From NCBI GenBank assembly GCA_965246755.1, contig OZ251979.1, forward strand, positions 9,089 through 73,088: 64,000 bases of DNA. The letters run 5' to 3'. A program made the translations under genes and the position numbers. Of the stretch, positions 13,756 through 60,564 are shown piece by piece. Origin of the DNA: Alphaproteobacteria bacterium. Its GTDB lineage: Bacteria; Pseudomonadota; Alphaproteobacteria; UBA11073. The notes under the pieces were generated by a model that saw only the letters and a list, made by a program, of their open reading frames with translations, made no database searches and was not told the DNA's origin. The first letter of the stretch is position 1. The number at the start of each line of letters is the position of its first letter.

Positions 13756-13756
13756 C

Positions 13757-41857: not shown

Positions 41858-41963
41858 AACAAAACTCCTGATAATAAGATGGTTTTGAAACACATGCGGT
41901 TAAAATGCAAGCGTGATATACATCCCGACTTCCCAACCAGAGCAACAACGCGTAAAAGACATT

Positions 41964-42332
41964 ATGACCGCCGCCCAACTTGCCGAATATCTGCCGATCC
42001 TGCTGTTTTTGGGCGTTGCGGGCGGCATCTCGGTTGCAATGCTGATGGGGTCGTGGCTGCTCGCCAAGCAAAAACCGGATGCGCAAAAAAACTCACCCTA
42101 TGAATGCGGGTTTGAAGTCTTCGCCGATGCGCGTAACAAATTCGACGTGCGGTTTTACCTGGTGTCGATCCTCTTCATCATCTTCGACCTGGAGGTCGCG
42201 TTTCTGTTTCCCTGGGCGATTTCCCTGGGCAAAATCGGCCTGTTCGGGTTTTGGTCGATGGTAGCGTTTTTAAGCTTGCTGACCATCGGCTTTATCTACG
42301 AGTGGAAAAAAGGCGCCTTGGAGTGGGAGTAA
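41964..42332 (+). CDS. nuoA: NADH-quinone oxidoreductase subunit A
   Basis: [41 protein letters not shown] is the NuoA signature. The track ORF starts at a GTG at 41913. Confidence 0.9.
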
Positions 42333-42371
42333 TTTGATTATTTTAAGCGCTTAATAGCTATCAATTATTTA

Positions 42372-43433
42372 TTAGGCAGGCCCATTCGTGAATGGATGCT
42401 GAGAAACCGCAGTAGGTTTTGCGGCGATGTCTTGTTTGACAATGGCTTTTAAATATTGCGCGATGTGGCGTGCCAACGGCCGCGTATTTTCTTTAAATAA
42501 GACGATATATTGATATTCGATGCCATCATGCTGGTGTGTCACGATATTACGGCGTGACACGTTAAAACCGGCCTGGCGCGCCATTGACACAAAATTGTTG
42601 AATTCCGAACCTTCTGCGCGACCCGAAAAATTACCAAACAAAATCCCATTATCGCCAATGGCTTGGCTAATATCTTGGAGGCTTTGTGCATCTAAATGGT
42701 GCAGAACATATGGCGCGAGCGCAATCACCTCGCTTAACCCCATCGCCGCTTGGAATCTTTGCAGATCGTCTCGCAATGTTTCCGGCCTCGTCAGCTGACA
42801 TGGCACGCTGCAAACTGGCGGCACGGGGTCGGCAATCATATCGACGCCCAACCATGCCGCCATGCCATACGGTTCCAGCGCGCGTTGCGGCAGCGGATTA
42901 TGACCGGGGCCAATTTCAAGTGACAGGAATCGCGGCGACAAATCGCCTGCCACGCCTGCCGCTGTCAGCGTATCCAACAACAGCTTTTGACCGGGACGCA
43001 ATTGTTGCACCGGACGCGGTCTATGCTCATAACAATATTTTTCCAGCTGGCGCGGCATATGCCGCACTGCGCCGTAATAGCTATAGATAAAGCCAAACCA
43101 GCGGCGCAACCGCAATTGTAATTGACCATCTGTATAACGATAAGCGGGGCCATTTTCGTCCCACCCTTTCGTGCCATAGGGTTTGGGGTATTGTATGAGT
43201 TGCGCCGCCAGATCCGGAAAAATTTTGTCGGCCATATCTCGATCTAGTGTGACCCACAGATATTCGGGGCTGTTGATAGAGAGCAGCCTTTTACTATCAA
43301 TAATAAAACCCTGTTTGGCGACGAGGCGCGTGCGGCTGTCAAACGGTTGCAGGGCACTATTGGCGTCAATTATTGCCACCAGTGGCGGCGCATGAAATTT
43401 AGCCAAGGAAATTGTGATCGTTGGACTATTCAT
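42372..43433 (-). CDS. Hypothetical protein with a possible SAM-methyltransferase-like core, opposite strand between nuoA and nuoB
   Basis: 353 aa. The motif LSLEIGPGHNP followed by GVDMIAD resembles motifs I and II of class I methyltransferases, but the match is weak. Confidence 0.4.
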   Translation of the reverse strand: MNSPTITISLAKFHAPPLVAIIDANSALQPFDSRTRLVAKQGFIIDSKRLLSINSPEYLWVTLDRDMADKIFPDLAAQLIQYPKPYGTKGWDENGPAYRYTDGQLQLRLRRWFGFIYSYYGAVRHMPRQLEKYCYEHRPRPVQQLRPGQKLLLDTLTAAGVAGDLSPRFLSLEIGPGHNPLPQRALEPYGMAAWLGVDMIADPVPPVCSVPCQLTRPETLRDDLQRFQAAMGLSEVIALAPYVLHHLDAQSLQDISQAIGDNGILFGNFSGRAEGSEFNNFVSMARQAGFNVSRRNIVTHQHDGIEYQYIVLFKENTRPLARHIAQYLKAIVKQDIAAKPTAVSQHPFTNGPA

Positions 43434-43537
43434 TATGTATCCTTCAATATTTATCCCATGAATATCTTACAGACTTGCTAATATTCCGCCATTAGACAGC
43501 ACTTTCATTCACAGGCGGTTTTTGGTATGATAATGCC

Positions 43538-44113
43538 ATGCAAACGCCGTCTGTGCCGATTATCGCCAACTCCGCCGGCTGGACCGGTATCCATACGCTG
43601 CCCGCGCATGACAATTTCGCCAAAGCCGCGGCGGCGGAACTGGAAGACCGCGGCTATGTGGTGGCGCAATTTGATAAGTTGGTCGCCTGGGCGCGCACCG
43701 GTTCAATGTGGCCGATGACCTTTGGCCTCGCCTGCTGCGCGGTGGAGATGATCCACGCCTATATGGCGCGCTATGACCTCGACCGCTTTGGCGTGATCCC
43801 GCGCCCCAGCCCGCGTCAATCCGATGTAATGATTGTGGCCGGCACGTTGACCAACAAAATGGCCCCGGCGCTGCGCAAAGTGTATGACCAAATGCCGGAG
43901 CCGCGCTGGGTCATCTCGATGGGCAGCTGCGCCAATGGCGGCGGCTATTACCATTATTCCTATTCCGTGGTGCGCGGCTGCGACCGCATCGTGCCGGTTG
44001 ATGTTTATGTACCGGGTTGCCCCCCGACGGCCGAAGCACTGGTTTACGGCATTATGCAATTACAGAAAAAAATCCAGCGCGCGGCGGATCGCAAACCGCT
44101 GATCCGGGCGTAG
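43538..44113 (+). CDS. nuoB: NADH-quinone oxidoreductase subunit B
   Basis: GLACCAVEM and the Fe-S ligand pattern [16 protein letters not shown]...VPGCPP. Confidence 0.95.
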
Positions 44114-44114
44114 C

Positions 44115-44744
44115 GTGATGGTAATTGACACCCTCACCCTGCTTGCTGAAGGTTTTGCCATTGTGCATCCCGAAATTGTTACCGGTTACGAATTCGACCA
44201 TGGCGAATTGATTTTGGATATCGCGCGCGACCAGATTAACGTGGCGCTGGCGTGGTTGCGCGATCACCCCGATTATAAGTTCGTGCAGCTGGTTGACATC
44301 TGCGGCGTTGATAATCCATCGATGCCGGAACGGTTTACCATTGTTTACAATATGCTGTCGCTCAAGAAAAATCTGCGCATCCGGCTGAAGGTCACAACTG
44401 ATGAGGTAACGCCGGTGCCGTCTTGTGTCGCGCTGTTCCCCGTCGCGGGCTGGTATGAACGCGAAGTTTACGATTTATACGGCGTCAGCTTTGCCGGCAA
44501 TCCTGATATGCGCCGCATCCTGACCGATTACGGGTTTGAAGGCTTCCCCCTCAGGAAAGATTTCCCGCTGACCGGTTATCAGGAACTGCGTTATGACCCG
44601 CTCGAGCAACGCTGCGTGTATGAGCCGGTCAAACTGACCCAGGATTTCCGCCGTTTCGAATTCATGTCACCATGGGAAGGTATGACCAACGTGCAGCTGC
44701 CCGGCGATGAAAAGGCCGTGAAGCCGTTGGGTACTATCAATTAG
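44115..44744 (+). CDS. nuoC: NADH-quinone oxidoreductase subunit C
   Basis: 209 aa with the 30-kDa subunit motifs (ERFTIVYNMLSL, EREVYDLYGVSF). Confidence 0.9.
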   Translation: MMVIDTLTLLAEGFAIVHPEIVTGYEFDHGELILDIARDQINVALAWLRDHPDYKFVQLVDICGVDNPSMPERFTIVYNMLSLKKNLRIRLKVTTDEVTPVPSCVALFPVAGWYEREVYDLYGVSFAGNPDMRRILTDYGFEGFPLRKDFPLTGYQELRYDPLEQRCVYEPVKLTQDFRRFEFMSPWEGMTNVQLPGDEKAVKPLGTIN

Positions 44745-44774
44745 CTTGACAAAGCGCACGTTTTCACGTACGTT

Positions 44775-45077
44775 TTGAATATGTATGATGTTCCCACTAT
44801 TATAAATGCCACCCGCGCCCGCGCCGATATCTATAATCTGATCGAACGTGTGCATGACGAAGCGCGCCCTATCGTCATTACTGGCAAAAAGCACAATGCT
44901 GTACTGATGTCTGAGGAAGAATGGCGCGGCATTCAGGAAACGTTATATTTGTCTGCCATCCCTGGTATGGTGAATTCAATTTTAGAAGCCAGCAAAGAAC
45001 CATTGGAAGATGGTCTGGAATATACGGGACAGTCATTGGATGAACTGGAAAATTTCGTTAAACAAACAGGCGGTTAA
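44775..45077 (+). CDS. yefM: Phd/YefM-family antitoxin
   Basis: ...TRARADIYNLIERVHDEARPIVITGKKHNAVLMSEEEW is the YefM signature. The track starts at TTG, and the ATG at 44781 is likely. Confidence 0.75.
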   Translation: MNMYDVPTIINATRARADIYNLIERVHDEARPIVITGKKHNAVLMSEEEWRGIQETLYLSAIPGMVNSILEASKEPLEDGLEYTGQSLDELENFVKQTGG

Positions 45078-45303
45078 AGACCTAATCAAATGGGAGCGCT
45101 TGGGACGCGGGCATGCACCGCGTGTTTTACTTGATGTGATTGCGGATGATCCATTTGCGCCTTATCCCAAATATGAAAAACTTAATGGCAATTTAGCCGA
45201 ACATTATTCGCGCCGCATCAACCAACAGCATCGACTTGTTTACACCGTTGATCAAAATACGCGCACTATTCATGTCGTGCGCATGTGGACGCATTACGAA
45301 TAA
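45040..45303 (+). CDS. yoeB: YoeB/Txe-family toxin (RelE superfamily)
   Basis: ...HYSRRINQQHRLVYTVDQNTRTIHVVRMWTHYE is the YoeB C-terminal catalytic region. It overlaps the antitoxin gene. The track ORF starts at 45010. Confidence 0.7.
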   Translation: MNWKISLNKQAVKDLIKWERLGRGHAPRVLLDVIADDPFAPYPKYEKLNGNLAEHYSRRINQQHRLVYTVDQNTRTIHVVRMWTHYE

Positions 45304-45321
45304 GCCGTTATAAATCCGTCC

Positions 45322-46077
45322 ATGGATATTGATATTATTGGCATGCTGACCGATCCGGCGGCGTGGCTGTCGCTGGTCACGCTAGCGCTGTTGGAAATTG
45401 TGCTGGGGATCGACAATCTGGTCATTGTCGCTATTTTGGCCGGTAAGCTGCCGCCAAAACAGCAGCCGCGTGCGCGGCGGCTGGGCCTTTCCGTCGCGCT
45501 GATCACCCGGATTATGCTGCTGTCATTGGCGTTCTTTATCGCGCAGATGGCAAAGCCACTGTTCAGCATCGCGCAATACAGTTTCTCCATTCGCGATTTA
45601 TTGCTGATCGCGGGCGGGCTGTTCCTTTTGGTCAAGGGCACGCTGGAGATTCATCATACAATCGAGGATGACGACAGCGGGCCCGAGGTTAAACCCAAGG
45701 TGCAGGCGGTATTCGGTCTCGTCATCGCGCAAATCGCCGTTATGGATATCGTCTTTTCGTTCGACAGCGTCATGACGGCAATTGGCGTGGCCGAACATCT
45801 GCCGATCATGATCCTGGCCATCGTCATTTCAATGGCGGTGATGATCTGGGCCATCAACGGCATCTCAGACTTTATCGCGCGGCACCCGACGGTTAAAATG
45901 CTGGCGCTCAGTTATATTCTGCTGATCGGTATTGCCTTAATCGGCGAAGGCTTTCAATTCCATATTCCGAAAGGCTATCTGTATTTCGCGATGGCGTTTT
46001 CGTTTGGTGTCGAATTGCTCAATATGGCGGGACGGCGCAGGGCCGCGAGACGGTTGATTGGAAAAACACTCGACTAA
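45322..46077 (+). CDS. TerC family integral membrane protein
   Basis: LEIVLGIDNLVIVAILAGKLP is a TerC/YoaE-type repeat, with seven TM helices. Confidence 0.7.
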   Translation: MDIDIIGMLTDPAAWLSLVTLALLEIVLGIDNLVIVAILAGKLPPKQQPRARRLGLSVALITRIMLLSLAFFIAQMAKPLFSIAQYSFSIRDLLLIAGGLFLLVKGTLEIHHTIEDDDSGPEVKPKVQAVFGLVIAQIAVMDIVFSFDSVMTAIGVAEHLPIMILAIVISMAVMIWAINGISDFIARHPTVKMLALSYILLIGIALIGEGFQFHIPKGYLYFAMAFSFGVELLNMAGRRRAARRLIGKTLD

Positions 46078-46253
46078 TATTATCAAAATGGTAATATTTA
46101 AAAATGGAATATGTGGAATTTAATGTAACAATTGAATTAGAGGCTTGGGTCGTGGCACGTTTGTATGAAAACGCCAAAGATTATGCAAGCATGGAAGAAT
46201 ATCTAAAGTTTATATTGCGCGAAGATGCTTTGCGTTCCCAGAATAACAGAAAA

Positions 46254-47123
46254 TTATAAATGCAAACCGGAAAATTTATGAAATCGCGCGCTAAGATTTT
46301 CAGGCATTGCAAAATCATCTCTAACTATCGCATTGCACAATCCAGCCATTTTTTGTTCTTCCCTATAGTCTCTTGGCACGCCACAAACAACAATATTGTT
46401 CCTACCCGTTCTGGTCTTAATGAACTCCTTTGCCGCCATTGCGGATTCCGCGCCCTTTTCATTATCTTCAATTACAAAGGCATACGTTTCTTTGGCTGAC
46501 CAACCATGTCTTTTTACTATGTCATAAAAAGACTTTAGATACATGTCAGGTGCGGGCTTACTGTTACGCACTTCATCGGCAGTTACAGTGCTTTCCCAAG
46601 GTAGTTTTTCTTCTAATTTTCTATCTACCAACGCTAAATTTGCCTCAACAATTGGACGTCCACTATTAGATACCGCGCCGATAGGAATTTGCGCCGCACT
46701 TACCCGTTGCACTAATCTTGCCACCGGCATGCGCACATTTGATGTTTCGGGAATATATTGCGCCATGACGGTATCAAAATGGCTTTTGATAAGATCGCGA
46801 AGATGATCCTTTGGCATGTCTTTAGGAATAACCTCGCCTGCTAACTCTCTAAACCATATTTCTGCCGCCTCATATTGCTGACCGGGCAACTGCTCTGCGC
46901 CAACCTTAAAAAGACGCTTAGTTAATTCAGGCCCTAGTGCATCAGGCACAAATGTTTCATAGGAATTAACAACGGCAAGACCAAAACCAATGGCATCAAC
47001 GGCAAGTCCTGTTGTCCCTTCTTCGCCACATAAACGCGTATCCAAACAATCCACATTTGGATTGACAACGGTCAGCGTGAAATCCACATCGCTTTGCAAA
47101 ATAAGGTTTTTCATTTCAATCAA
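46254..47123 (-). CDS. HAD-superfamily hydrolase-like protein (AT-rich)
   Basis: Motif I DVDFTL, motif II GAVSNS and motif III/IV ...FVIEDNEKG. The composition is AT-rich relative to the flanking nuo genes. Confidence 0.4.
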   Translation of the reverse strand: MIEMKNLILQSDVDFTLTVVNPNVDCLDTRLCGEEGTTGLAVDAIGFGLAVVNSYETFVPDALGPELTKRLFKVGAEQLPGQQYEAAEIWFRELAGEVIPKDMPKDHLRDLIKSHFDTVMAQYIPETSNVRMPVARLVQRVSAAQIPIGAVSNSGRPIVEANLALVDRKLEEKLPWESTVTADEVRNSKPAPDMYLKSFYDIVKRHGWSAKETYAFVIEDNEKGAESAMAAKEFIKTRTGRNNIVVCGVPRDYREEQKMAGLCNAIVRDDFAMPENLSARFHKFSGLHL

Positions 47124-47237: not shown

Positions 47238-48455
47238 ATGACCGCCGTTTTAAAACCAGCCGAGACCGCGCCGCCGAATATGGCGGAAGACATCAAGCCC
47301 TACACCATGAATTTCGGGCCGCAGCATCCCGCCGCGCATGGCGTCTTGCGGCTGGTGATGGATATGGAAGGCGAGACGGTGCGGCGCTGTGATCCGCATA
47401 TCGGCCTCCTCCACCGCGGCACCGAAAAGCTGATTGAATATAAAACCTATTTGCAGGCGATCCCGTATTTCGACCGGCTCGATTACGTGAGCCCGATGTG
47501 CCAGGAACATTCGTTTGCGCTGGCGGTTGAAAAACTGCTCGGCATCACCGCGCCGCCGCGCGCGCAATATATCCGCGTCTTGTTTGCCGAAATCACCCGC
47601 ATCCTCAACCATATTTTGAACATCACGACCTATGCGCTCGATGTCGGCGCCATCACGCCGTCTCTATGGGGCTTTGAAGAGCGTGAGAAAATGATGGAGT
47701 TTTACGACCGCGTCTGTGGCGCGCGGTTGCATGCCAATTATTTTAGGCCCGGCGGCGTTGCCATCGATATGCCGGATGGGTTGCTGGAAGATATCGCCAG
47801 CTATTTTGACGGGTTTGGCAAATTCATTGACGATCTGGAAAACCTGCTGTCCGGCAACCGCATTTTCAAACAGCGCACGGTTGATATCGGCATCGTGTCG
47901 GCGCAAGAGGCGTTGGCTTGGGGCTTTACGGGGCCGATGCTGCGCGCGTCCAATGTCGCGTGGGATCTGCGCCGCAGCCAGCCGTATGATGTCTACGACC
48001 AGATGGATTTTGACGTGCCGGTCGGCAAAACCGGCGATTGCTGGGCGCGTTATCTGGTCCGCATGGAGGAGATGCGCCAGTCGGTGCGCATCATCAAACA
48101 ATGCATTGAACAGATGCCGGAAGGCCCAGTGAAGTCGGACGATCACAAGATTTCGCCGCCCAAGCGCGCCGACATGAAGACGTCGATGGAGGCCCTGATC
48201 CATCATTTTAAACTCTACACTGAAGGCTATCACGTGCCGGCCGGGGAAACCTATACCGCCACGGAATCGCCAAAAGGGGAGTTCGGCGTTTATCTAATAT
48301 CCGACGGCACCAACAAACCCTATCGCTGCCACATTCGCGCGACCGGCATGTCGCACCTGCAGGCGATGGATTTCATGGCCAAGGGGCATATGCTGGCTGA
48401 TGCGGTCGCCATCATCGGCAGTATGGATATCGTGTTCGGTGAGATTGACCGTTAA
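47238..48455 (+). CDS. nuoD: NADH-quinone oxidoreductase subunit D
   Basis: 405 aa. [17 protein letters not shown] and the C-terminal [14 protein letters not shown] motifs of the 49-kDa subunit. Confidence 0.95.
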
Positions 48456-48495
48456 TAAAACTATACATTCTGCATAATTCTTAGCAGAATAAATT

Positions 48496-49311
48496 ATGTT
48501 AAATATTCCCATTAATGACGTCGCGCAGGTCATGCGCGACTGCGCTGCCACCGAGATCATGCCGCGGTTTGGCAAACTGCTGGCGCATGAGATTGAAGAG
48601 AAGTCACCCAATAATCTGGTGACGGTCGCCGACCGCGCGGCCGAGGAATTTTTGCGGCCCAGGTTGGAGGCGTTACTGCCCGGCTCCGTCACCATTGGTG
48701 AGGAGGCGGTGCATAAAAAGCCGTCGCTGATAAAATTATTGAAGCAGGATCAGCCGGTGTGGATCATCGACCCCATTGATGGCACGCATAATTTCGCGCA
48801 TGGCGTGCCGGTGTTCGGGATCATCATTGCGCTCATAATCAATAACGAAACACAGGCCGGGTGGATTTATGATCCAAACCAGGACCGTATGGCAATGGCG
48901 ATAAAGGGCGAGGGCGTCACTATCAACGGCCAGCCTGCGACCGTCGCCGCGCCGTCGGCACTCGCGGATGCCACTGGCTTTGTCTCCGCCAAATTTTTTC
49001 CGCCGGCGCAGCGTGAGCTGCTCGCCAAACGCGCCGCCGCCCTTAAAAATACCGGGCACCTGCGCTGTGCCAGCCACGAATATCTGGCGCTGGTCGAAGG
49101 CGCACGGCAGTTCGGCGTTTTCCGCAAGCTGATGGTGTGGGACCATGCCGCCGGTATTTTAATGCATGCCGAGGCGGGCGGTTATAATGCCAAACTGGAT
49201 GGCAGCCACTATCAGCCCACCGATGAAACCGGCGGTATCCTGCTGGCCCCGGATAAACAGATGTGGTTCCAGCTGCGCGACCATCTGTTCGGTGAAGATG
49301 TGGAGTTATGA
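48496..49311 (+). CDS. Inositol monophosphatase family protein
   Basis: IMPase motifs IIDPIDGTHNF and WDHAAG. Confidence 0.75.
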   Translation: MLNIPINDVAQVMRDCAATEIMPRFGKLLAHEIEEKSPNNLVTVADRAAEEFLRPRLEALLPGSVTIGEEAVHKKPSLIKLLKQDQPVWIIDPIDGTHNFAHGVPVFGIIIALIINNETQAGWIYDPNQDRMAMAIKGEGVTINGQPATVAAPSALADATGFVSAKFFPPAQRELLAKRAAALKNTGHLRCASHEYLALVEGARQFGVFRKLMVWDHAAGILMHAEAGGYNAKLDGSHYQPTDETGGILLAPDKQMWFQLRDHLFGEDVEL

Positions 49312-49808
49312 TCGAAATTAAACCTATGACTTTAAATATGTTTGACGACTGGTATTCCGCCTTGGATAGCATAGCATCTGAAAAATACTGGTTATCATTT
49401 GATACCGCACCACCTAAGGCAGAAGCGCAAAAATATGTAACAGACATGATTGATCAAGATGCGCCGTTTTATACAGCATGGAAAGATAACCAATTTATTG
49501 GCTGGTGCGATATAAGTTTAAACAAAACAGCTTGGAATAAAGTATTCTCACGTCATATTGGTGATTTGGGTATGGCGATATTATTGGAATGGCGCGGGAA
49601 CGGAGCAGGACAAAAGTTGATCACAGAAGCGATTGCTCATGCAAAACGGATTGGCCTCGAAAAAATTCATCTAAGCGTTTATAGTCATAATATCGCCGCA
49701 AAGAATTTATATCTTAAAAATCGTTTTGATATTATTGGTGTCCAGATAAAGGCATTTAAATCAGGCGATAATTATAGTGATATATTGCCTATGGAACGGT
49801 TTCTCTAA
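49308..49808 (+). CDS. GNAT family N-acetyltransferase (AT-rich)
   Basis: 166 aa with the acetyl-CoA-binding motif RGNGAGQKL and a C-terminal ...AKNLYLKNRFDIIG. Confidence 0.6.
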   Translation: MIEIKPMTLNMFDDWYSALDSIASEKYWLSFDTAPPKAEAQKYVTDMIDQDAPFYTAWKDNQFIGWCDISLNKTAWNKVFSRHIGDLGMAILLEWRGNGAGQKLITEAIAHAKRIGLEKIHLSVYSHNIAAKNLYLKNRFDIIGVQIKAFKSGDNYSDILPMERFL

Positions 49809-49848: not shown

Positions 49849-50463
49849 ATGATCATGAAAGCGCTGTTCGCCGCCCATCAGCCTGAAACGTTTGCCTTTA
49901 CGCCCGAAAACCGTGTGGCGGGTGAGGCGATTATCCAAAAATACCCAGACGGGCGCCAGCAATCAGCCGTGATGCCGCTGTTGCATCTGGCGCAATTGCA
50001 GCATGACAACTGGCTGCCCCGCGCGGCGATGGACCATGTGGCAGATTGGCTCGGCATGCCGCGCGTGCGCGTCTATGAGGTTGCCAGCTTTTACACCATG
50101 TATAATCTGGCGCCAGTCGGTGTGCATCATGTGCAGATTTGCACCACGACGCCGTGCTGGCTGCGCGGATCGGCGGCAATTGTCAGCGCCTGCCAAACGC
50201 ATCTGGGCATTGGCCTCGGTGAAACCACCGCCGACGGCCAGTTCACATTAGACGAGGTCGAATGCCTTGGCGCCTGTGTCAATGCACCGATGGTGCAGGT
50301 GGATACCAAAGACAGCAGCACCTATTATGAGGACCTAACGCCGGAAAATATCACCGAAATTTTACGCAAACTCGCCGCTGGCGAGCCAGTCACGCCCGGC
50401 CCGCAATCCGCGCGGCACAGTTCAGAACCGTTGGCGGGCACTATTGCCGCCAATCAAAACTAA
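49849..50463 (+). CDS. nuoE: NADH-quinone oxidoreductase subunit E
   Basis: 24-kDa subunit with the [2Fe-2S] ligands ...QICTTTPCWLRG...CLGACVNAP. Confidence 0.92.
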   Translation: MIMKALFAAHQPETFAFTPENRVAGEAIIQKYPDGRQQSAVMPLLHLAQLQHDNWLPRAAMDHVADWLGMPRVRVYEVASFYTMYNLAPVGVHHVQICTTTPCWLRGSAAIVSACQTHLGIGLGETTADGQFTLDEVECLGACVNAPMVQVDTKDSSTYYEDLTPENITEILRKLAAGEPVTPGPQSARHSSEPLAGTIAANQN

Positions 50464-52041: not shown

Positions 52042-52798
52042 AAATAGCTTTGAAAGTAATAAACTTCTTTTAAAATAAACATATTTAATAGTAATAAACT
52101 CATTATGAGTAATTTTCGTTTAGACCATCATGTGCATGTTTTGATCCAGTTTGCCAGACATTTTGGCGTTAAAGGCAAAATCGATATTGTTAGATTAAAT
52201 GGCGCGTTTACCAATACATTTTTGGATGAAAATTCTAAATTATGCTTTCAAATGCGTAGCAGAAATACCGGTTGTCTTGTCGAAAGAAAAGAGTGGTTTC
52301 GATATAGTCTTCCTGAAATGCTTGCTCCATTGGTTGTAATTTCAGCTCCTGATTATTGGCTAAACCATTACACCTTTAATAAATACTAAAAACGATGACC
52401 CTATTAAAAGTGAATTAGCTTTTAACAGATTAAAAAAAAGATTAGCTATTTATGGATTAGACGCAGATATAAGTTGTGGTGGTAAAAACATTGGTTATAT
52501 CGGACCGCATAATAAACCAATTATTTATGACTTGGGAGCATTTAGACCGCTAGGTTATAAGTACGGCAATCAAGGCAAGCTGTTAGAAAATTTTTATCTA
52601 TCAAATCAGCCAGAGGTAAGTGATTATGAACATCAAAAACAGATTTGGCGAGAAAGATGCTATAATTTAAAAAGAATATCTCGCTTAGCTCAATCTTACG
52701 CTGATAAATACAAAGATGACTTATCGGAATTAGTTTTATTGCCTTATTTATCATCGCCATCGGGCATAAACCTGGCTGCATCTCAGCCATAACCGCCA

Positions 52799-54124
<1,326 letters not shown>

Positions 54125-54219: not shown

Positions 54220-56013
54220 ATGATCAAACCTGAAGCTAAATTTATCAGAGAAATTCTTTCATCATCTATTCAATATGAAATTCCAATATATCAAAGAGAC
54301 TACAAGTGGAGTGGGGCCGAAGCAGAAGAACTTATTAACGATCTAAAAGAAAGACAAGAAGCCAAAGCCGATAATCTTTTCTTAGGGACAATCATTCTTG
54401 AATCGAGCAAGGATGAGGGTAAAAAAGCCCAAGTTGTTGATGGCCAACAAAGATTAACTACTATCATTTTGCTTCTTATAGCTTGTCGTGAAAGAGCAAA
54501 AGTAGTTAATCAAAAACAAGCTGTTAAAATTCATGATTTTATTTCTTATTTAGACTCTAAAGGTGATGAGATCGATCGTAAACTGATCCCCTCAAAATCT
54601 ATTAAGGAAACTTTCGATTATATATCTAACTATGATTGGGCTGGAGACTTTCCTTCTATTGTTACTGTAAATGACGGAAAAAAACGCATACAAAAACAAG
54701 TGGCGCGTCAACGCAATAAAATTAAACCTATCTATGATTTTTTCTTTTACGAGCATGTATCAAAATTCGATCGTGATGCTTTAGGAGAGTTTGTTGAAGC
54801 GCTATTAAGCGCCTATGTAGTTAAAATAGATATTGATGATCCTCAAGAAGCTTTCATGATTTTTGAAAGAACAAATGCGCGTGGAGTGGATTTGGAAGTA
54901 GGTGATCTTTTAAAAAATTATTTATTTAAGCAAAGCATTGATGAGTTTGCCGCAGCCTGGGATGAAATTGTTGAAAATTCCGAAAAGACTCTTTTGAGAA
55001 TGATAAAATATTTTATCGTCTCTAAAAATGGCTATACTGCAAAAGTGAAACTTTACAAAGAAGTCCGCGATTACGCCAAAGAAATTGGTGTCGAGCAATT
55101 TGTTGAACAATTAATGGATTTTTCTAAATTTTATAAAGTTATAAGATCGGCATCTATAGTTGAGTACAAAAATTATTTGGAAATGGCGGGATTAGTAGCT
55201 TTGTCACAGGATGAAGACCGTTACAAACAGACTTATTATTCTATTGAAGGATTACGCGAGTTCAAAGTTTCGCAAATTTTTCCATTACTTTATTCAGCTG
55301 TTCAGTGCTTTATAAAATGTGGACATGGCGAAGATAGAGAGAAATCAAAAGAATTAGTGAGATTATTTGAATCTCTAGAAAAATTCCATTTCATTAATAC
55401 AGCAATCGGGGAAATGATTGGAAATAAGGTAGAAAAAGAATATGCAAGATTTTGCAAACGGTATTATGAGTCCACTGATTTCAAAGGTACTACTCAAGAA
55501 CTAATTTCTTGGCTAAAAAGTCAGTTAATTTCACGCGATGTATTTGTTTCCAAGTTTCAAGATCCAAAAATTACTGGTTATTCTACAAGTTTTAATCCTA
55601 TGGTTGCCTATATCTTTGATCGTTTTAATAACTATAGAAACAAGCCTGGTGAAAGAGTTGAAATTTTCAAACCCGATCCATCAGTTTTTAAAAAAAGCTA
55701 CAACACTGAACATTTTTTTCCACAAAATTCGTCACAGATTGATGCAAACGTAGACACAGAATATTTACACAGTATAGGTAATTTGTTGCTTATTTCAAAA
55801 CAGATGAATTCTAGCTTAGGAAATTTAACGCCATCAGATAAAATGAAATTATTAGAGGGAAAACTAAATGATAGAACACTTAATCTCGCTTATTTGAGAG
55901 AATTTATTTCTGACTATTCTTCTAAAGCAGCAGACTGGAGTGCTGAAACAATAAAGAGTCGAACCGAGACAATGGCTAAACGCGGCTATAATGAGATTTG
56001 GAAAATAGATTAA
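54220..56013 (+). CDS. GmrSD-family type IV restriction endonuclease-like protein (DUF262 + DUF1524)
   Basis: N-terminal DUF262 with YQRDYKW and the ParB-like DGQQR motif (VVDGQQRLTTIIL). C-terminal DUF1524 with the His-Me finger-like EHFFPQNS...HSIGNLLLISKQMNSSLGN. AT-rich. Confidence 0.75.
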   Translation: MIKPEAKFIREILSSSIQYEIPIYQRDYKWSGAEAEELINDLKERQEAKADNLFLGTIILESSKDEGKKAQVVDGQQRLTTIILLLIACRERAKVVNQKQAVKIHDFISYLDSKGDEIDRKLIPSKSIKETFDYISNYDWAGDFPSIVTVNDGKKRIQKQVARQRNKIKPIYDFFFYEHVSKFDRDALGEFVEALLSAYVVKIDIDDPQEAFMIFERTNARGVDLEVGDLLKNYLFKQSIDEFAAAWDEIVENSEKTLLRMIKYFIVSKNGYTAKVKLYKEVRDYAKEIGVEQFVEQLMDFSKFYKVIRSASIVEYKNYLEMAGLVALSQDEDRYKQTYYSIEGLREFKVSQIFPLLYSAVQCFIKCGHGEDREKSKELVRLFESLEKFHFINTAIGEMIGNKVEKEYARFCKRYYESTDFKGTTQELISWLKSQLISRDVFVSKFQDPKITGYSTSFNPMVAYIFDRFNNYRNKPGERVEIFKPDPSVFKKSYNTEHFFPQNSSQIDANVDTEYLHSIGNLLLISKQMNSSLGNLTPSDKMKLLEGKLNDRTLNLAYLREFISDYSSKAADWSAETIKSRTETMAKRGYNEIWKID

Positions 56014-56101
56014 CGAACGACTATAAACCAGATTAGGATGTATCAGTTCCCCCTCCGTTCTCACTTTTTTTATGGGGCCTTTATGTTACGATTGACGGTC
56101 G

Positions 56102-56770
56102 ATGATTCCGAAACTCCCCATTAAAATTGCGCCATCGGTTTTGGCGGCAGATTTCACAAAATTAGGTGAGGAAATCCGCGCCATCGATGCGGCGGGAGCG
56201 GATTATATTCATCTGGATGTCATGGATGGGCATTTTGTGCCGAATATTTCGTTTGGCCCGGCGATTATCAAGCAACTGCGCCCGCTGACGCAAAAGCCAT
56301 TCGATGTGCATTTGATGGTGGCGCCGGTTGATCCGCTGCTCGCGCCCTTTATTGATGCGGGTGCTGATATCATCTCCGTCCACCCGGAATCCGGCCCGCA
56401 TTTGCATCGCACGCTGCAAACCATCAAGGCCGCCGGCTGCAAGGCGGGCGTTGTCCTTAACCCCGCAACGCCGATCAGCATGCTGGACGATGTCATCGAC
56501 ATGCTGGACCTTATTTTAGTTATGACGGTCAACCCCGGTTTTGGCGGGCAGTCATTTATCCCGCTGCTCGAAAAAATCGCGCGCGTGCGCCAGAAAATTA
56601 CGCTGTCCGGCCGCGCGATTGACCTGCAGCTGGATGGTGGCATCACACCTGAAACCGCGCCGGATGCCGTGGCCGCAGGTGCCGATGTCCTCGTCGCCGG
56701 GACGGCGATTTTCGGCAAAGGCCAGGCCAATTACGCCAGTATTATTCAGCAATTGCGGGGCGGTGTATAA
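56102..56770 (+). CDS. rpe: Ribulose-phosphate 3-epimerase
   Basis: IAPSVLAADFTKLGEEIRAIDAAGADYIHLDVMDGHFVPNISFGP and the C-terminal VAAGADVLVAGTAIF. Confidence 0.92.
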   Translation: MIPKLPIKIAPSVLAADFTKLGEEIRAIDAAGADYIHLDVMDGHFVPNISFGPAIIKQLRPLTQKPFDVHLMVAPVDPLLAPFIDAGADIISVHPESGPHLHRTLQTIKAAGCKAGVVLNPATPISMLDDVIDMLDLILVMTVNPGFGGQSFIPLLEKIARVRQKITLSGRAIDLQLDGGITPETAPDAVAAGADVLVAGTAIFGKGQANYASIIQQLRGGV

Positions 56771-58413
56771 TGGGCCTGCCACTCCTTAAAACTGACACGC
56801 CGCCGCTGGGTAAATCGCTCAAATCACTGTTTTTCGGCAGCCCGATTTACAAATTGACGCTGGCACGTGATGCACCCGCGCAATTAAATATCCCGCCCCA
56901 AGACACCTGGCCCGCGGATGCGGATGCCGGGATTCAATTGGCCAGTGGTAATTTCGCGTTCGCCGGGCAAAGTCATGAATGCCCGTTGCCAAACTTTTCG
57001 CCATATGGCGCCAATGACGCGTGGCGCCAGGCCGTGCAATCATTCTGCTGGCTGCGTGATCTGCGCGCGGCGGGGGGCGATGCCGCACGGCGCACCGCGC
57101 GCAAATGGGTGCAGGCCTGGCTTGACGCGTATCACGATTATGAAGCGCAATGCTGGGCACCCGGCGTCATGGGCCGCCGTCTGGCCAACTGGGTGTTGCT
57201 GCATGATTTTTTCTGCGCCAGCGCCGATGATGATTTCCGCTATATGGTGTATGACAGTATCGCGCGGCAATCCTGTCATCTGGCGCGCATCTTGCCGGAC
57301 GGTCTGTCAGGTCTAGAATTACTGGAGGCTTTGAAAGGCCTCATTCTGGCATCGCTGGCACTGCCGGAACGGAATGTTTATCTGGCATCCGGCTTGCGCC
57401 AGTATGCCCAGGCACTGCAATCACAATTTCTGGATGATGGCGGCCATAGCAGCCGGTCGCCCGCCGCGCTGTTTGACGCCTTGCGCGGCGCGGTGGAAAT
57501 CCGCGCCGCTTTACATGCCCAGCGCCGCCCGGTGCCGCAGGAAATTCAGGATGCTATTGCCCGCGGCGGCATCGCGCTTAAATTCTTCCGGCATGGCGAT
57601 GGCGGCTTTGCGCTGTTCAACGGCGCGCAGGAGGCGCGCGGCGTTATGGTGGATGCCGTCTTGTCGCAGGCGGATATTAAAGGCCGCACGCTGAAATCGG
57701 CAGGGGCCTCCGGTTTTGAACGGCTGTCCGCGGGCCGGAGTTTGCTAATCATGGATTGCGGCACGCCGGCGGTGGCGCCCAATACGCACGCCGGCACGCT
57801 GTCATTTGAACTATCAGTGGGGCGCGAACGGCTGATCAGCAATTGCGGTGCCTGGCCCGGTATGGGCGCCTGGCGTGCCGCGCTATCCTCCACGCCGGCA
57901 CATAGCACGCTGACCTTGCAGGATGCCAATTCCTGTGAATTCGCGGGGTCGGGCGCAGTGGTCCGCCGCATCAAACGCCGCGCCTCTTTTGTCACGGTAA
58001 CGCGCGATGACCAGCAAGGGGATTGCCAGCTGGAGGCCACGCATGACGGTTATCGCGCCCAATATGGCATACTGCACCGGCGCACGTTGCAGTTACTGCA
58101 AAATGGCGAGGAATTGAATGGTGAGGATGCACTGATCGGCGACTGCGCGGGGTTGCAGGCGGCGATCCGGTTTCACTTGCACCCGACCGTGCAGGCGTCA
58201 TTGACCAGCGACGGCGGCGCGGTGTTGCTGCGGCTGCCGTCCGGCATCGGCTGGCGGTTCCGCTGTAACGGTGCGATGCTGGGCCTCGAATCCTCTATTT
58301 ACCTGGGCCAAGGCGATCAGCCGCGCCGCACGCTGCAACTGGTGCTGACGACACAAACGCAGGGGCCGCAGACGAAAGTACAGTGGCGGTTGAGTAGAGA
58401 GAAGCGCGGCTAG
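56770..58413 (+). CDS. Conserved alphaproteobacterial protein, heparinase II/III-like (tentative)
   Basis: 547 aa with backbone-like GC. The N-terminus, size and gene neighbourhood (rpe, pur genes) resemble the heparinase II/III family proteins annotated in alphaproteobacteria. The assignment is from memory of the family. Confidence 0.35.
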   Translation: MGLPLLKTDTPPLGKSLKSLFFGSPIYKLTLARDAPAQLNIPPQDTWPADADAGIQLASGNFAFAGQSHECPLPNFSPYGANDAWRQAVQSFCWLRDLRAAGGDAARRTARKWVQAWLDAYHDYEAQCWAPGVMGRRLANWVLLHDFFCASADDDFRYMVYDSIARQSCHLARILPDGLSGLELLEALKGLILASLALPERNVYLASGLRQYAQALQSQFLDDGGHSSRSPAALFDALRGAVEIRAALHAQRRPVPQEIQDAIARGGIALKFFRHGDGGFALFNGAQEARGVMVDAVLSQADIKGRTLKSAGASGFERLSAGRSLLIMDCGTPAVAPNTHAGTLSFELSVGRERLISNCGAWPGMGAWRAALSSTPAHSTLTLQDANSCEFAGSGAVVRRIKRRASFVTVTRDDQQGDCQLEATHDGYRAQYGILHRRTLQLLQNGEELNGEDALIGDCAGLQAAIRFHLHPTVQASLTSDGGAVLLRLPSGIGWRFRCNGAMLGLESSIYLGQGDQPRRTLQLVLTTQTQGPQTKVQWRLSREKRG

Positions 58414-58509
58414 TAAATAAACGCTGCGAGAAGCACGGATAATTTAACACGCGGCCTTCCGCCATTTTGCAAATCGCGTTATACAATCATCCCTCAAGGA
58501 TTTGTTTAG

Positions 58510-60564
58510 ATGCCCAGCCTCATCATTGACGGAATTAATATTGAAGTTGAAAACGGCACGTCGATTTTTCAGGCGTGTCAGCAGCTGGGGATTGAGGTGC
58601 CGCATTTCTGTTATCACGACCGGCTGAAGGTCGCGGGAAATTGCCGCATGTGCCTGGTGCAGGTGAAGGGCGCCCCCAAGCCGGTTGCCAGTTGCACGCA
58701 ACCCTGCAGCGACAATATGGAGGTCCTGACCAACAGCGAGATGACGCACAAGGCGCGCAAGGGCGTGATGGAAATGCTGCTGATCAACCACCCGCTCGAT
58801 TGCCCGATCTGCGACCAGGGCGGCGAATGCGACCTGCAGGACCAGGCCATGGGTTATGGGTTTGACCGGTCGCGTTATCAGGAAAACAAGCGCGCGGTCG
58901 TCGATAAAAATTTTGGTCCCCTGATCAAAACCTCCATGACGCGCTGCATCCAATGCACGCGCTGTGTCAGGTTTTCAGATGAAATTGCGGGGAATGACGA
59001 GCTGGGCGCCTTCGGCCGCGGCGAGCATATGGAAATCGGCACCTATATCGAAAAGGCGGTAACCTCGGAGCTATCGGGCAATCTGGTGGATGTGTGCCCG
59101 GTGGGGGCGCTGACCTCCAAACCCTATGCTTTCAAGGCACGGCCGTGGGAACTCAGGAAAACCGAAAGCATTGATGTGCTGGATGCGGTGGGCAGCAACA
59201 TTCGCATCGATGCGCGCGGCGGCGAAGTGATGCGAATTCTGCCGCGTTTGAATGAAGATATTAATGAAGAATGGATTGGCGATAAAACGCGCTATGCCTA
59301 TGACGGTTTGAAACGTCAGCGGCTCGACAAACCCTATGTGCGCGTCAATGGCAAATTGCAGGCTGTCACCTGGGATAAGGCCTTTCAGACGATTGCCGAT
59401 GTCTTGGCGCCGCTCAAGGGCAGCGAAATTGCCGCCATTTCCGGCGACCTGTGCGCGGCGGAAGAACTGATCGCGCTCAAGCGTTTGATGGAAGGTTTGG
59501 GTTCGCATAATCTGGATTGCCGCCAGCGCAGCGAGACGTTTGATACGACGCAGCGCAGCGGTTATCTGTTCAATTCGACCATTGCCGGGATCGATAGCGC
59601 GGATGTGATTGTTTTGGTCGGCACTAATCCACGGGTTGAGGCACCTATCATCAATGCCCGTATCCGCAAGGCTGTGCGCCAACGGAATGTAGCGGTGTCG
59701 GTTATCGGCACAGCGTATGATCTTGCCTATGCTTATGAACATATCGGTGATGTGTCGAGCGTCCTGCAGCAGATTGCTGACGGCCGCCACAGTTTGGCGG
59801 AGGTGTTGAAAAATGCCAAACAGCCTATGGTTATCGTTGGTCAGGGCGCGCTCAACCGCCGTGATGGCGCGGCAGTACAGGCAGCGCTGGCACGCATTGC
59901 CAATCAGTATCTGCAACGCGATGGTTGGAATGGCTTTAATGTATTGCACACATCAACCGGCCTCGTGACAGGCTTAGAGGTTGGCTTCACGCCGCACAAG
60001 CGTGAGGCGCGGGACACCGCCGGTATCTATGCCGGTTGCGCCAATGGCGACATTCGCGCGGTGTATTTATTAAACGCGGATGAGATTAACATCGCGGCGC
60101 TGAAACAAACATTTGTCATTTACCAGGGGCATCATGGCGACCGTGCCGCGGCGCGTGCGGATGTGATTTTGCCGGGCTGTGCCTATACCGAAAAGAACGG
60201 CACCTATGTAAATACCGAAGGCCGCGCCCAACAGGCGCGCGCCGCGGTTTATCCCCTTGGCGAGGCCAAGGAAGACTGGAAAATCATTCGTGCATTGTCA
60301 GATTATCTGGGCGCCGGTTTGGATTATATCAGCATCGCCGATGTGCGTGACGATCTAGCCAAGCATAGCGATGCGTTTAAAAATATCGGTCACATTGTGC
60401 CCGCACCTGTCCGCGATTTTGGCACACCGGGGCCGATTGACCCGACGCCGTTTATCTCACCGGTTAATAATTATTATATGACCGATGTTATCTCCCGCGC
60501 CTCGGAAACGATGGCCAAATGCGTAATGGAACTGTTGCCGCAGTCGGAATTAAAAGCGGCATGA
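58510..60564 (+). CDS. nuoG: NADH-quinone oxidoreductase subunit G
   Basis: 75-kDa subunit with the N-terminal [2Fe-2S] CYHDRLKVAGNCRMCLV, [4Fe-4S] CIQCTRCVRF and CPVGALT motifs, and a molybdopterin-like C-domain. Confidence 0.95.
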   Translation: MPSLIIDGINIEVENGTSIFQACQQLGIEVPHFCYHDRLKVAGNCRMCLVQVKGAPKPVASCTQPCSDNMEVLTNSEMTHKARKGVMEMLLINHPLDCPICDQGGECDLQDQAMGYGFDRSRYQENKRAVVDKNFGPLIKTSMTRCIQCTRCVRFSDEIAGNDELGAFGRGEHMEIGTYIEKAVTSELSGNLVDVCPVGALTSKPYAFKARPWELRKTESIDVLDAVGSNIRIDARGGEVMRILPRLNEDINEEWIGDKTRYAYDGLKRQRLDKPYVRVNGKLQAVTWDKAFQTIADVLAPLKGSEIAAISGDLCAAEELIALKRLMEGLGSHNLDCRQRSETFDTTQRSGYLFNSTIAGIDSADVIVLVGTNPRVEAPIINARIRKAVRQRNVAVSVIGTAYDLAYAYEHIGDVSSVLQQIADGRHSLAEVLKNAKQPMVIVGQGALNRRDGAAVQAALARIANQYLQRDGWNGFNVLHTSTGLVTGLEVGFTPHKREARDTAGIYAGCANGDIRAVYLLNADEINIAALKQTFVIYQGHHGDRAAARADVILPGCAYTEKNGTYVNTEGRAQQARAAVYPLGEAKEDWKIIRALSDYLGAGLDYISIADVRDDLAKHSDAFKNIGHIVPAPVRDFGTPGPIDPTPFISPVNNYYMTDVISRASETMAKCVMELLPQSELKAA

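Follow-up and report, generated by a model that had tools for sequence, protein, structure and literature searches.

In the literature of the 1990s, the nqo cluster of Paracoccus denitrificans was described as interspersed with unidentified reading frames (URFs), and in the Rickettsiales and other intracellular alphaproteobacteria with reduced genomes the nuo genes are scattered. The nuo cluster of Rhodobacter capsulatus carries urf genes (PMC9036352), and split complex I clusters have been reported to be common (bioRxiv 10.1101/2025.03.13.643058). In 'The Life-Cycle of Operons', Price, Arkin and Alm (2006; PMC1480536) described how insertion and rearrangement modify operons or lead to their death; inserted genes use native promoters, and native genes also enter ancestral operons, e.g. 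ptr in recC-recB. We give a probability of roughly 0.75 to the reading that the nuoA-G cluster analyzed here is half of a single 14-subunit complex I gene set in advanced operon erosion, which is lineage- and genome-wide.

The window, a stretch of 64,000 nucleotides, carries intact copies of nuoA, B, C, D, E, F and G at 41913-60564, which follow the canonical order on the forward strand; the gene content and order given by the first-pass annotation were reproduced using Pfam, PDB and PADLOC. nuoA (41913-42332; PF00507, E 5e-39; GC3 0.69) is followed by nuoB (43538-44113; PF01058), nuoC (44115-44744; PF00329), nuoD (47238-48455; PF00346, E 9e-126) and nuoE (49849-50463; PF01257, E 3e-57), with all five conserved cysteines kept in both NuoB and NuoE. 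nuoF (52835-54124; PF01512, PF10589 and SLBB domains) most likely starts at ATG 52835 rather than at TTG 52799, and the N-terminus of NuoF lines up with the references, with 10/10 conserved cysteines and 309 of 342 invariant positions retained. The final nuo gene in the window, nuoG (58510-60564), encodes seven NuoG domains and retains 14 of 14 conserved cysteines. Presumably, the seven intact genes still make N- and Q-module subunits. Unrelated genes are found at five of the six A-G junctions, which confirms the mosaic structure and upholds the earlier claim of inserts at almost every junction, except for B-C, the sole uninterrupted junction with a spacing of 1 bp.

The window shares with P. 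denitrificans and R. capsulatus the 14-subunit alphaproteobacterial complex I, in which nuoC and nuoD are separate genes, as well as unrelated, mostly co-oriented ORFs among the nuo genes, the junctions occupied including E-F, F-G and G-H. In these two species, all 14 genes form one locus, and the URFs are co-oriented, small and low in number. Here, by contrast, non-nuo sequence makes up 63.5% of the cluster (11.8 kb), two inserts are antisense, foreign defense and toxin-antitoxin genes are present, the cluster breaks off after nuoG, and no insert is common to any other lineage examined. Similarities to the Rickettsiales include a small genome (1.93-Mb contig), nuo genes distributed over at least two loci, a solitary nuoD in related lineages and secretion-system genes; unlike there, the seven genes remain collinear and co-oriented, insertion dominates over dispersal, and the GC content (about 51%, native genes about 56%) is not reduced. 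As described by Price et al. (PMC1480536), native genes have acquired foreign or ORFan neighbors by insertion, and the operon is split by rearrangement, but these were single events in E. coli, whereas at least ten inserted genes are stacked in one ancient operon here. Among 80 alphaproteobacterial nuo loci used as a baseline, none had more than four occupied A-G junctions or more than about 6 kb of inserts. Inserts at multiple junctions occurred in about nine of these 80 loci, and F-G was the junction most often occupied (11/80). Several junctions, up to four of A-G, are occupied in L042 (Micavibrio sp.), L049/L056/L067/L073, L055/L070 and L081-L085. However, the inserts of these lineages, represented by metagenome-assembled genomes, are conserved between species of one lineage and have a locus-like GC content, while half of the window's inserts are foreign by composition and all lack a counterpart elsewhere.

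The inserts themselves fall into distinct compositional classes, as GC3 in the window is sharply bimodal (0.25-0.46 versus 0.56-0.74), in agreement with the earlier distinction between AT-rich and backbone-like inserts. The A-B junction holds orf353 (42372-43433, reverse strand) with an intermediate GC3 of 0.52, unique as an insert at this position across the 67 loci in which the junction was measurable. It had been called methyltransferase-like, a label that found no support in Pfam, NCBIfam, PDB or PADLOC, in which orf353 has no match; its AlphaFold model (pLDDT 44) is unusable, and just a LEIGPG motif resembles a SAM-binding site. At C-D, a yefM/yoeB type II toxin-antitoxin pair (44775-45303; PF02604, E 4e-15; PF06769, E 2e-12) with foreign GC3 values of 0.44 and 0.46 is followed by a terC-family membrane protein gene (45322-46077; PF03741, E 4e-45) with a native GC3 of 0.69 and, on the reverse strand, by a foreign HAD-like hydrolase gene (46254-47123; PF13419, E 1e-5; GC3 0.36). 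The D-E junction contains a native gene for an inositol monophosphatase/HisN-like phosphatase (IMPase; 48496-49311; PF00459, E 3e-45; GC3 0.69), whose top NCBIfam match is HisN, under the HisN cut-off, and a foreign GNAT acetyltransferase gene (49308-49808; PF00583, E 4e-14; GC3 0.33), whose start overlaps the IMPase stop by 4 nt (ATGA).

Between nuoE and nuoF lies a native gene for a PhrB-type FeS (6-4) photolyase (50503-52041; PF04244; GC3 0.65) with a full-length match to Agrobacterium PhrB (PDB 4dja, E 4e-195). The adjoining foreign spacer at 52042-52834 (GC 0.32-0.39) contains two short ORFs (52105-52389 and 52532-52792) lacking homologs and without hits in Pfam and PADLOC, and is probably a gene remnant. 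The F-G junction is occupied by a gene for a GmrSD-family type IV restriction enzyme (54220-56013; PF03235 and PF07510; full-length PADLOC HEC-06 match, E 7e-66) of strongly foreign composition (GC 0.33, GC3 0.25), followed by the native genes rpe (56102-56770; PF00834, E 1e-78; GC3 0.64) and a heparinase II/III-like gene (56770-58413; PF07940, E 2e-60; GC3 0.69), which overlap by 1 nt. Except for orf353 and the HAD-like gene, all inserted genes lie on the forward strand. Judged by composition, it is plausible that the AT-rich inserts are recent, as had been proposed, and the inserts of native composition could be old, ameliorated transfers instead of intragenomic translocations.

Downstream of nuoG, the cluster ends at an AT-rich island (60565-61697; GC 0.36-0.41). 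A Tad4-like ORF on the reverse strand (61388 to 60796; PF25186, E 6e-25) is frameshifted at a C10 tract (61276-61285), and G11 in place of the ten-base tract restores an ORF of 197 aa. The ORF had been described as phase-variable; the break could equally be a homopolymer assembly error. The antitoxin gene previously noted as an orphan dinJ was found as a RelB/DinJ ORF (61515-61697, forward strand; PF04221, E 4e-13) without a toxin partner. A cluster of five hairpins (61698-61890; MFE -102.4 kcal/mol, z = -10.6) without a match in Rfam separates the island from the 3' end of ppiA and is bounded by the palindrome CTCTCCCT-NNN-AGGGAGAG, which is present in two copies versus zero expected. The place expected for nuoH is taken by the native genes ppiA (61903-62478; PF00160) and purD (62903 to beyond 64000; GARS domains) on the opposite strand. 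The reported lack of nuoH-N downstream holds for the window, in which tblastn detected none of these genes and just 3.4 kb lie past nuoG, but, as regards nuoH, probably not for the genome. NuoD and NuoG of the window are identical to P0241 and P0001, and a full-length NuoH (P0134; 338 aa, PF00146) is recorded, like these two, on a 1,925,773-bp contig (ncbi and ena). P0134 is 79% identical to NuoH of the relatives that are also nearest for NuoE, NuoF and NuoG. From the matching contig records we infer that nuoH is located elsewhere on the same 1.93-Mb replicon, so that a split between nuoG and nuoH, rather than truncation through loss, accounts for the end of the cluster.

The nearest recorded relatives share about 70% NuoG identity, and none closer was present in the databases searched. 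They carry different inserts at other junctions, nuoA-D are not beside nuoE, and rpe and the heparinase-like gene are absent from their F-G junction; the identical arrangement that would indicate an ancient, stable organization was thus not seen in them. L081-L085 show the order nuoE-F-(x)-G-H-(SBP)-I-(SBP)-J-K-(x)-L-M-N-birA and lack nuoA-D upstream of it. In L087, small inserts occupy B-C, C-D and H-I, and in the more distant relatives L088 and L089 nuoD stands alone, followed directly in L089 by an MNT/HepT toxin-antitoxin pair. The outgroup L086 displays HU, a tight nuoA-N and then birA-coaX-rnj. For this group, in which the nuo genes are split, insert-bearing or fully scattered, the assumption of a tight operon as the normal state of complex I genes fails. 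Inserts are conserved within other lineages, and none of the window's 18 insert and flanking genes was found near nuoG in 85 other loci. The E-F and F-G inserts and the break between nuoG and nuoH arose after the split from the relatives at about 70% NuoG identity, a comparison that is coarse for insertion timing and polarizes these three junctions, but not A-B, C-D and D-E.

Two inserts lie on the opposite strand, and therefore either promoters before nuoB and nuoD or antisense read-through of these inserts must exist. Of the multiple internal promoters or terminators, or read-through, suggested by the first-pass annotation, the rejection of one simple operon stands, but no canonical intrinsic terminator, i.e. 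no hairpin followed by a U-tract, was detected at any nuo junction. Terminator-like sites were not enriched (23 versus 27 expected) and were absent from the junctions, and a simple sigma-70 scan flagged no convincing promoters in the spacers upstream of nuoB and nuoD. Given the two opposing inserts, expression would come from at least three units: nuoA alone, nuoB-nuoC-yefM-yoeB-terC, and nuoD-IMPase-GNAT-nuoE-phrB, the last possibly continuing into nuoF-GmrSD-rpe-heparinase-nuoG. The co-oriented inserts are located -4 to about 100 bp from their neighbors without canonical terminators, and this spacing suggests that nuo-proximal promoters most likely drive their transcription together with the nuo genes.

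Such read-through is central to the idea that junctions of essential, constitutively expressed operons are preferred and selectively retained landing sites, at which foreign accessory genes for toxin-antitoxin systems, restriction or acetyltransferases are expressed and their deletion would harm complex I. It is in line with the absence of terminators from the nuo junctions, the co-orientation of 13 of the window's 16 AT-rich ORFs with a native neighbor less than 100 bp away, the apparent overlaps of 4-8 nt of GNAT, orf196 and orf356 with their neighbors, the toxin-antitoxin pair directly 3' of nuoD in L089, and the tendency of inserted ORFans to sit downstream of native genes and to use their promoters (PMC1480536). 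However, the start codon is secure for GNAT only among these overlaps, two nuo inserts have the opposite orientation, and in a dense 1.9-Mb genome almost any site lies between closely spaced genes, so that co-orientation may be neutral; we therefore regard this selection as unlikely. Recruitment of TerC, IMPase, PhrB, Rpe, the heparinase-like protein and orf353 as accessory or co-regulated factors of complex I, comparable to the Rhodobacter urf genes, one of which has been proposed to encode an assembly methyltransferase (PMC9036352), appears highly improbable. While native composition, tight packing, co-orientation with the nuo genes and the Fe-S protein nature of PhrB would fit, none of these genes was near nuo in 85 other loci, the nearest relatives included, their known roles, such as pentose-phosphate epimerase, DNA photolyase and phosphatase, have no link to respiration, and equally unrelated genes interrupt other operons of the window.

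The heavy invasion of the cluster and the presence of nuoH elsewhere on the replicon, as deduced from the contig records, might also point to an eroding duplicate of a complete canonical nuoA-N located elsewhere. This is still harder to believe, as none of the seven nuo genes is disrupted and the cofactor ligands are retained, and a single NuoD, NuoG and NuoH from the 1,925,773-bp contig appeared among the top 120 matches of each search, where a second copy from the same clade would be expected. Least probable of all is a chimeric contig joined within nuo, despite a source that looks like a metagenome-assembled contig and a C10 frameshift that hints at long-read error. It would require joins exactly at five gene boundaries with nuoA-G order, orientation and every ORF intact, the codon usage of the native-like inserts matches that of the nuo genes, and relatives show the same kind of architecture in independent assemblies.

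We hypothesize that operon erosion started from an ancestral alphaproteobacterial nuoA-N operon, tight and followed by birA-coaX-rnj, which would have been cut between nuoG and nuoH, with nuoH relocated on the 1.93-Mb replicon. Housekeeping genes of native composition (terC, the IMPase gene, phrB, and rpe with the heparinase-like gene) may have entered four junctions, and a later layer would consist of horizontally acquired AT-rich accessory genes, namely yefM/yoeB, HAD, GNAT, the degraded ORF and GmrSD. Mosaicism is not restricted to nuo: interruptions are likewise present in the tol-pal, opp and E2/lpdA clusters of the window, and AT-rich islands make up a similar share of the sequence beyond the nuo region (24%) and within it (29%). 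Furthermore, Dot/Icm genes are present, and together with the 1.93-Mb contig they suggest that the organism is probably host-associated. Given that other operons of the window are affected too, as are the nuo genes in related lineages with small genomes, the underlying process is genome-wide rearrangement and foreign-gene uptake and not specific to complex I. The locus would therefore represent an extreme case of a known phenomenon, operon decay, and not a new system.

Seven nuo genes are found in the window in the canonical order A-B-C-D-E-F-G, all on one strand and with nuoC and nuoD as separate genes, according to profile searches and tblastn: nuoA (41913-42332, +), nuoB (43538-44113, +), nuoC (44115-44744, +), nuoD (47238-48455, +), nuoE (49849-50463, +), nuoF (+), with ATG 52835 as the preferred start and an N-terminus that aligns with reference NuoF sequences, and nuoG (58510-60564, +). 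The gaps between them amount to 1205 bp (A-B), 1 bp (B-C), 2493 bp (C-D), 1393 bp (D-E), 2371 bp (E-F) and 4385 bp (F-G), B-C being the only insert-free junction from A to G. The canonical nuoA-N organization, an unbroken run of 14 genes that overlap or are separated by short gaps, is absent from the window. The region (41913-60564) spans 18,652 bp, of which 6,804 bp are nuo coding sequence when nuoF starts at ATG 52835, and 63.5% of the region is therefore insert. All seven nuo products are full length, the conserved cysteines are kept in NuoB (5/5), NuoD (4/4), NuoE (5/5), NuoF (10/10) and NuoG (14/14), and of the positions at which two reference species agree, 75-90% are retained. Judged by these features, the nuo genes of the window appear to be working genes rather than relics.

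The ORF listing and the profile searches matched the gene map of the first-pass annotation almost item by item. Junction A-B holds orf353, a gene for 353 aa on the minus strand (42372-43433), and junction C-D holds yefM/yoeB, terC and a HAD-like hydrolase gene, the latter also on the minus strand (46254-47123). An inositol-monophosphatase-family (IMPase) gene and a GNAT gene overlapping it occupy D-E. E-F contains a PhrB-type (6-4) photolyase gene and an AT-rich stretch of approximately 0.8 kb, whose two short ORFs have no homologs, and F-G contains a gene for a type IV restriction enzyme of the GmrSD family, rpe and a gene resembling heparinase II/III. YefM and YoeB (PF02604, E 4e-15; PF06769, E 2e-12) are encoded by overlapping, co-oriented short ORFs with the Phd/YefM antitoxin directly 5' of the YoeB toxin, as in type II toxin-antitoxin systems. 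The GmrSD protein unites the N-terminal DUF262 domain of GmrS (PF03235, E 4e-35) and the C-terminal DUF1524 domain of GmrD (PF07510, E 2e-13), which is the domain content of a type IV restriction enzyme, and matches PADLOC HEC-06 over its full length (E 7e-66). The photolyase aligns with PhrB of PDB entry 4dja from residues 1-504 onto 1-504 (E 4e-195) and with CryB of 3zxs (E 2e-170), a full-length similarity expected of an FeS-BCP (6-4) photolyase. The assignment of orf353 as methyltransferase-like could not be upheld, as it has no match in Pfam, NCBIfam, PDB or PADLOC; a LEIGPG motif is its sole feature recalling a SAM-binding site, and its single-sequence AlphaFold model (pLDDT 44) is unusable.

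GC3 and the codon-adaptation index are sharply bimodal over the whole window, which bears out the proposed division into AT-rich and backbone-like inserts. The inserts form two layers, namely housekeeping genes of native composition (GC3 0.56-0.74; terC 0.69, IMPase 0.69, phrB 0.65, rpe 0.64, heparinase-like gene 0.69) and, in contrast, compositionally foreign accessory genes (GC3 0.24-0.46; yefM 0.44, yoeB 0.46, HAD 0.36, GNAT 0.33, spacer ORFs 0.29, GmrSD 0.25), with orf353 in between (0.52). A recent arrival of the AT-rich layer would be a reasonable reading of this composition. In metagenome scans, the heparinase-like protein had no match and GmrSD had relatives at 31% identity at most, hence these scans provided neither a donor nor an independent confirmation of the junctions; plasmid matches of GmrSD did not exceed 27% identity. 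The flanks of the inserts carry no direct or inverted repeats beyond short matches at chance level, and the nuo region contains no tRNA or other RNA families and, among its Pfam matches, no integrase or transposase. Given that repeats, tRNAs, integrases and known RNA elements are all lacking at the inserts, the mechanism of insertion is not visible.

Since orf353 and the HAD-like gene are antisense, nuoA, nuoB-C and the genes from nuoD onward cannot form one simple sense transcript. As the first-pass annotation had anticipated in regarding the cluster as something other than a simple operon, these two genes would require at least three transcription units or else antisense read-through. The co-oriented inserts lie between -4 and about 100 bp from their neighbors; the IMPase gene ends and the GNAT gene begins within one ATGA, and there is a 1-nt overlap of rpe with the heparinase-like gene. 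With 23 terminator-like sites versus 27 expected, such sites show no enrichment and none is located at a junction, and folding of the spacers revealed no stable hairpin followed by a U-tract. A simple scan for sigma-70 promoters returned 40 sites versus 26.9 ± 5.8 expected and no convincing promoter; the excess is attributed to the AT-rich islands and was hence not counted as promoter evidence. Most economically, the co-oriented inserts would share transcripts with their nuo neighbors, in line with a pattern already described, the use of native promoters by inserted genes (PMC1480536). Two tandem copies of the 14-nt repeat TTCAATATGTATCC (43429-43456) lie in the spacer from which orf353 and nuoB diverge, a place where one would look for a promoter or operator of nuoB.

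In the canonical operon, nuoH-N follow directly after nuoG. Here, nuoG is followed by an AT-rich island and then by ppiA and purD on the opposite strand, and tblastn with NuoH-N of Azospirillum canadense (locus L008) found none of these genes in the window, which covers only 3.4 kb 3' of nuoG. The earlier statement that nuoH-N are missing downstream thus holds for this stretch, but nuoH itself is on record: the nearest relative's NuoH, used as a query, retrieved a 338-aa NuoH (P0134) from a contig of 1,925,773 bp in NCBI and ENA. The NuoG of the window is identical to a protein (P0001) recorded in NCBI and ENA on a single contig of 1,925,773 bp, and its NuoD is identical to a protein (P0241) likewise recorded in both databases on a contig of that length. 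Furthermore, P0134 is 79% identical to the NuoH of those relatives that are also nearest for NuoE (74%), NuoF (84-86%) and NuoG (70%). The nuo genes are accordingly distributed over at least two loci of one genome, with nuoH outside the window, and the cluster is therefore split between nuoG and nuoH and not truncated by loss. Where nuoH lies, and that the genome has nuoI-N, is inferred from these database records.

The island after nuoG has features of its own. An orphan dinJ had been annotated there, and the ORF at 61515-61697 (+) indeed matches RelB (E 4e-13) with no toxin gene after it. The ORF described as phase-variable starts at 61388 on the minus strand and does stop just past a C10/G10 tract (61276-61285), which may equally well reflect slipped-strand variation or a homopolymer assembly error; one added G (G11) fuses it to a Tad4-like domain of an anti-Thoeris family (PF25186, E 6e-25), resulting in an intact ORF of 197 aa (60796-61388, -). 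The location of an anti-defence-like gene on a bacterial chromosome beside a lone antitoxin suggests the remnant of a prophage or mobile element. A stretch of 193 nt (61698-61890) that lies after the dinJ-like ORF and before the 3' end of ppiA folds into a row of five near-perfect hairpins (-102.4 kcal/mol, z = -10.6); the outermost two share the palindrome CTCTCCCT-NNN-AGGGAGAG. This hairpin cluster has no Rfam match, no further copy in the window and none in the 100 loci compared; a REP/MITE-like element is one candidate identity, a bidirectional terminator at the breakpoint another.

For a baseline, all 14 nuo genes were mapped in 80 alphaproteobacterial loci (L001-L080), and more than 300 bp at a junction was scored as an insert. 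Most of these loci are tight, with median A-to-H junctions of -21 to +20 bp, and approximately nine of the 80 have inserts at several junctions. Occupancy of the junctions is non-random across the 80 loci: F-G is interrupted most often (11/80), followed by H-I (6 loci), C-D and D-E (5 each), B-C and G-H (4 each), I-J (3), E-F (2), and J-K and L-M (1 each). Inserts were never found at A-B (0/67), K-L or M-N, where the genes usually overlap. The baseline inserts are conserved between species of one lineage (e.g., L049/L056/L067/L073 and L055/L070), and the GC content of most of them is within about 0.05 of that of their own locus. The window exceeds all 80 loci: inserts occupy five of its six A-G junctions and total 11.8 kb, and it has the sole insert at A-B.

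NuoG shares at most 65% identity with its counterparts in Azospirillum, Skermanella and various MAGs, and the nearest relatives on record (P0002 and P0003, with five loci, L081-L085) reach 69-70%. Interrupted nuo clusters are known in Neisseria; a Neisseria-like origin was ruled out by the absence of DUS sequences and the alphaproteobacterial affinities of NuoG. The five nearest loci have the order nuoE-F-(ORF)-G-H-(solute-binding protein)-I-(solute-binding protein)-J-K-(ORF)-L-M-N-birA, with unrelated genes 5' of nuoE and without nuoA-D. The embedded genes encode periplasmic solute-binding proteins, namely SBP_bac_3 at H-I and Peripla_BP_6 at I-J in L083-L085 (e.g., L083, 12796-15274) and only the one at I-J in L081 and L082, and in all five loci they have start/stop overlaps with their neighbors. 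Given that E-F and G-H are adjacent in this clade, the inserts at E-F and F-G and the break after nuoG postdate the divergence from it. A further relative, L086, has retained the ancestral layout of HU, a tight nuoA-N and birA-coaX-rnj, and in L087 small inserts are present at B-C, at H-I and, in the form of a Sel1-repeat gene, at C-D. NuoD is too conserved for ranking relatives, and the search with it led to two loci with a solitary nuoD on contigs of other small-genome alphaproteobacteria, L088 (nuoD 10001-11221 on a 1.79-Mb contig) and L089, in which no other nuo gene occurs within 10 kb on either side. Immediately 3' of the nuoD of L089 lies an MNT/HepT (NTP_transf_2/HepT-like) toxin-antitoxin pair (nuoD and pair together, 10001-11869), which echoes the position of yefM/yoeB after nuoC in the window. 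None of 18 genes of the window, comprising inserts and flanks, is found near nuoG in 85 other loci; the available data therefore contain no identical conserved arrangement, which the first-pass annotation had named as the finding that would speak against recent insertion.

Among other explanations of the locus, functional recruitment of the native-like inserts to complex I is unlikely, as none of them is linked to nuo in any of the 85 further loci and none of their functions relates to respiration. It is similarly improbable that the cluster is a redundant, decaying copy: its genes are intact, and each of the searches with NuoD, NuoG and NuoH returned, among its best 120 matches, only one protein from a contig of 1,925,773 bp, which argues against a second paralogous nuo set from the same clade. 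A chimeric assembly would have joined unrelated sequences within nuo, but the gene order is preserved, the ORFs are intact at every boundary and similar architectures exist in independent assemblies, so that we regard this explanation, too, as unlikely.

Interruption is not specific to nuo. Segments with less than 44% GC cover 24% of the sequence that precedes the nuo region versus 29% of the region itself, and three more clusters in the window are interrupted. In tol-pal (9941-16853, -; ybgC-tolQ-tolR-tolA-tolB...pal-cpoB, with tolA assigned tentatively), tolB and pal are separated by an ORF for 310 aa on the plus strand (11510-12442) with native-like composition and no Pfam match. In opp (22131-28556, +), an AT-rich ORF for 196 aa (25326-25916) lies between oppA-oppB and oppC, apparently overlapping both neighbors, and oppC is followed directly by purH without oppD/F ATPase genes. 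In the 2-oxoacid dehydrogenase cluster (33406-41893, -), about 5.8 kb with a PIN-domain gene, an AT-rich ORF, a GT2 glycosyltransferase gene and an AT-rich nucleoside hydrolase gene separate the E2 gene (40610-41893) from lpdA (33406-34794). An AT-rich ORF for 356 aa with a weak BTB/POZ match (E 0.03) apparently overlaps the lpdA stop by 4 nt. A run of three large AT-rich ORFs (857, 557 and 306 aa; GC3 0.24-0.31) between ybgC and oppA (16912-22088, +) has no Pfam or PADLOC match and could encode effectors or an unknown system. It is conceivable, but in our estimate improbable, that foreign AT-rich genes (defence, toxin-antitoxin, possible effectors) preferentially embed in junctions of essential operons (nuo, opp, lpdA, tol-pal), where they would rely on the operon's transcription, at some sites on translational coupling too, and would be protected from deletion, such junctions rather than tRNA-gene islands being the main integration sites. 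Dot/Icm type IVB genes are present at 708-4749 (-), encoding a TraG/DotL-like coupling protein (708-2951) and DotM (3559-4749; PF23127, E 4e-49); together with the 1.93-Mb contig, they suggest a host-associated or intracellular organism with a fluid, reduced genome.

URFs in the nqo cluster of Paracoccus have long been known, and scattered nuo genes are classical for the Rickettsiales. The nuo cluster of R. capsulatus is interspersed with urf genes (PMC9036352), and split and single-cluster forms of complex I both occur across most clades according to a recent survey (bioRxiv 10.1101/2025.03.13.643058). In contrast to the Paracoccus/Rhodobacter clusters, in which co-oriented ORFs are part of a complete 14-gene cluster, the locus of the window contains two antisense genes, orf353 and the HAD-like gene, and ends at nuoG. 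Conservation of the interspersed ORFs among related species, as expected of that type, is not seen either: the inserts are absent near nuo in the 85 other loci, none of which is congeneric. The locus joins both known modes, interspersed ORFs and scattered genes, at unusually high density and together with defence and toxin-antitoxin genes. As operon erosion by insertion and rearrangement is already established, it is an extreme case of a known event; it reveals no new molecular system and is real but ordinary in kind. The initial observation of a mosaic cluster was thus confirmed, but its interpretation only in part, given that nuoH was not lost and that other clusters are interrupted as well.

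The locus offers a clear, if extreme, snapshot of an ancient 14-gene operon that is eroding with every structural gene intact, as it takes in translocated native genes and foreign insertions and is split in the end. Annotation tools that require contiguity would wrongly call complex I incomplete in this group. Related lineages provide a graded natural series, from tight clusters over those with few inserts and split clusters with inserts to solitary genes, in which the death of an operon can be studied, as well as how a multi-subunit enzyme keeps its stoichiometry without one.
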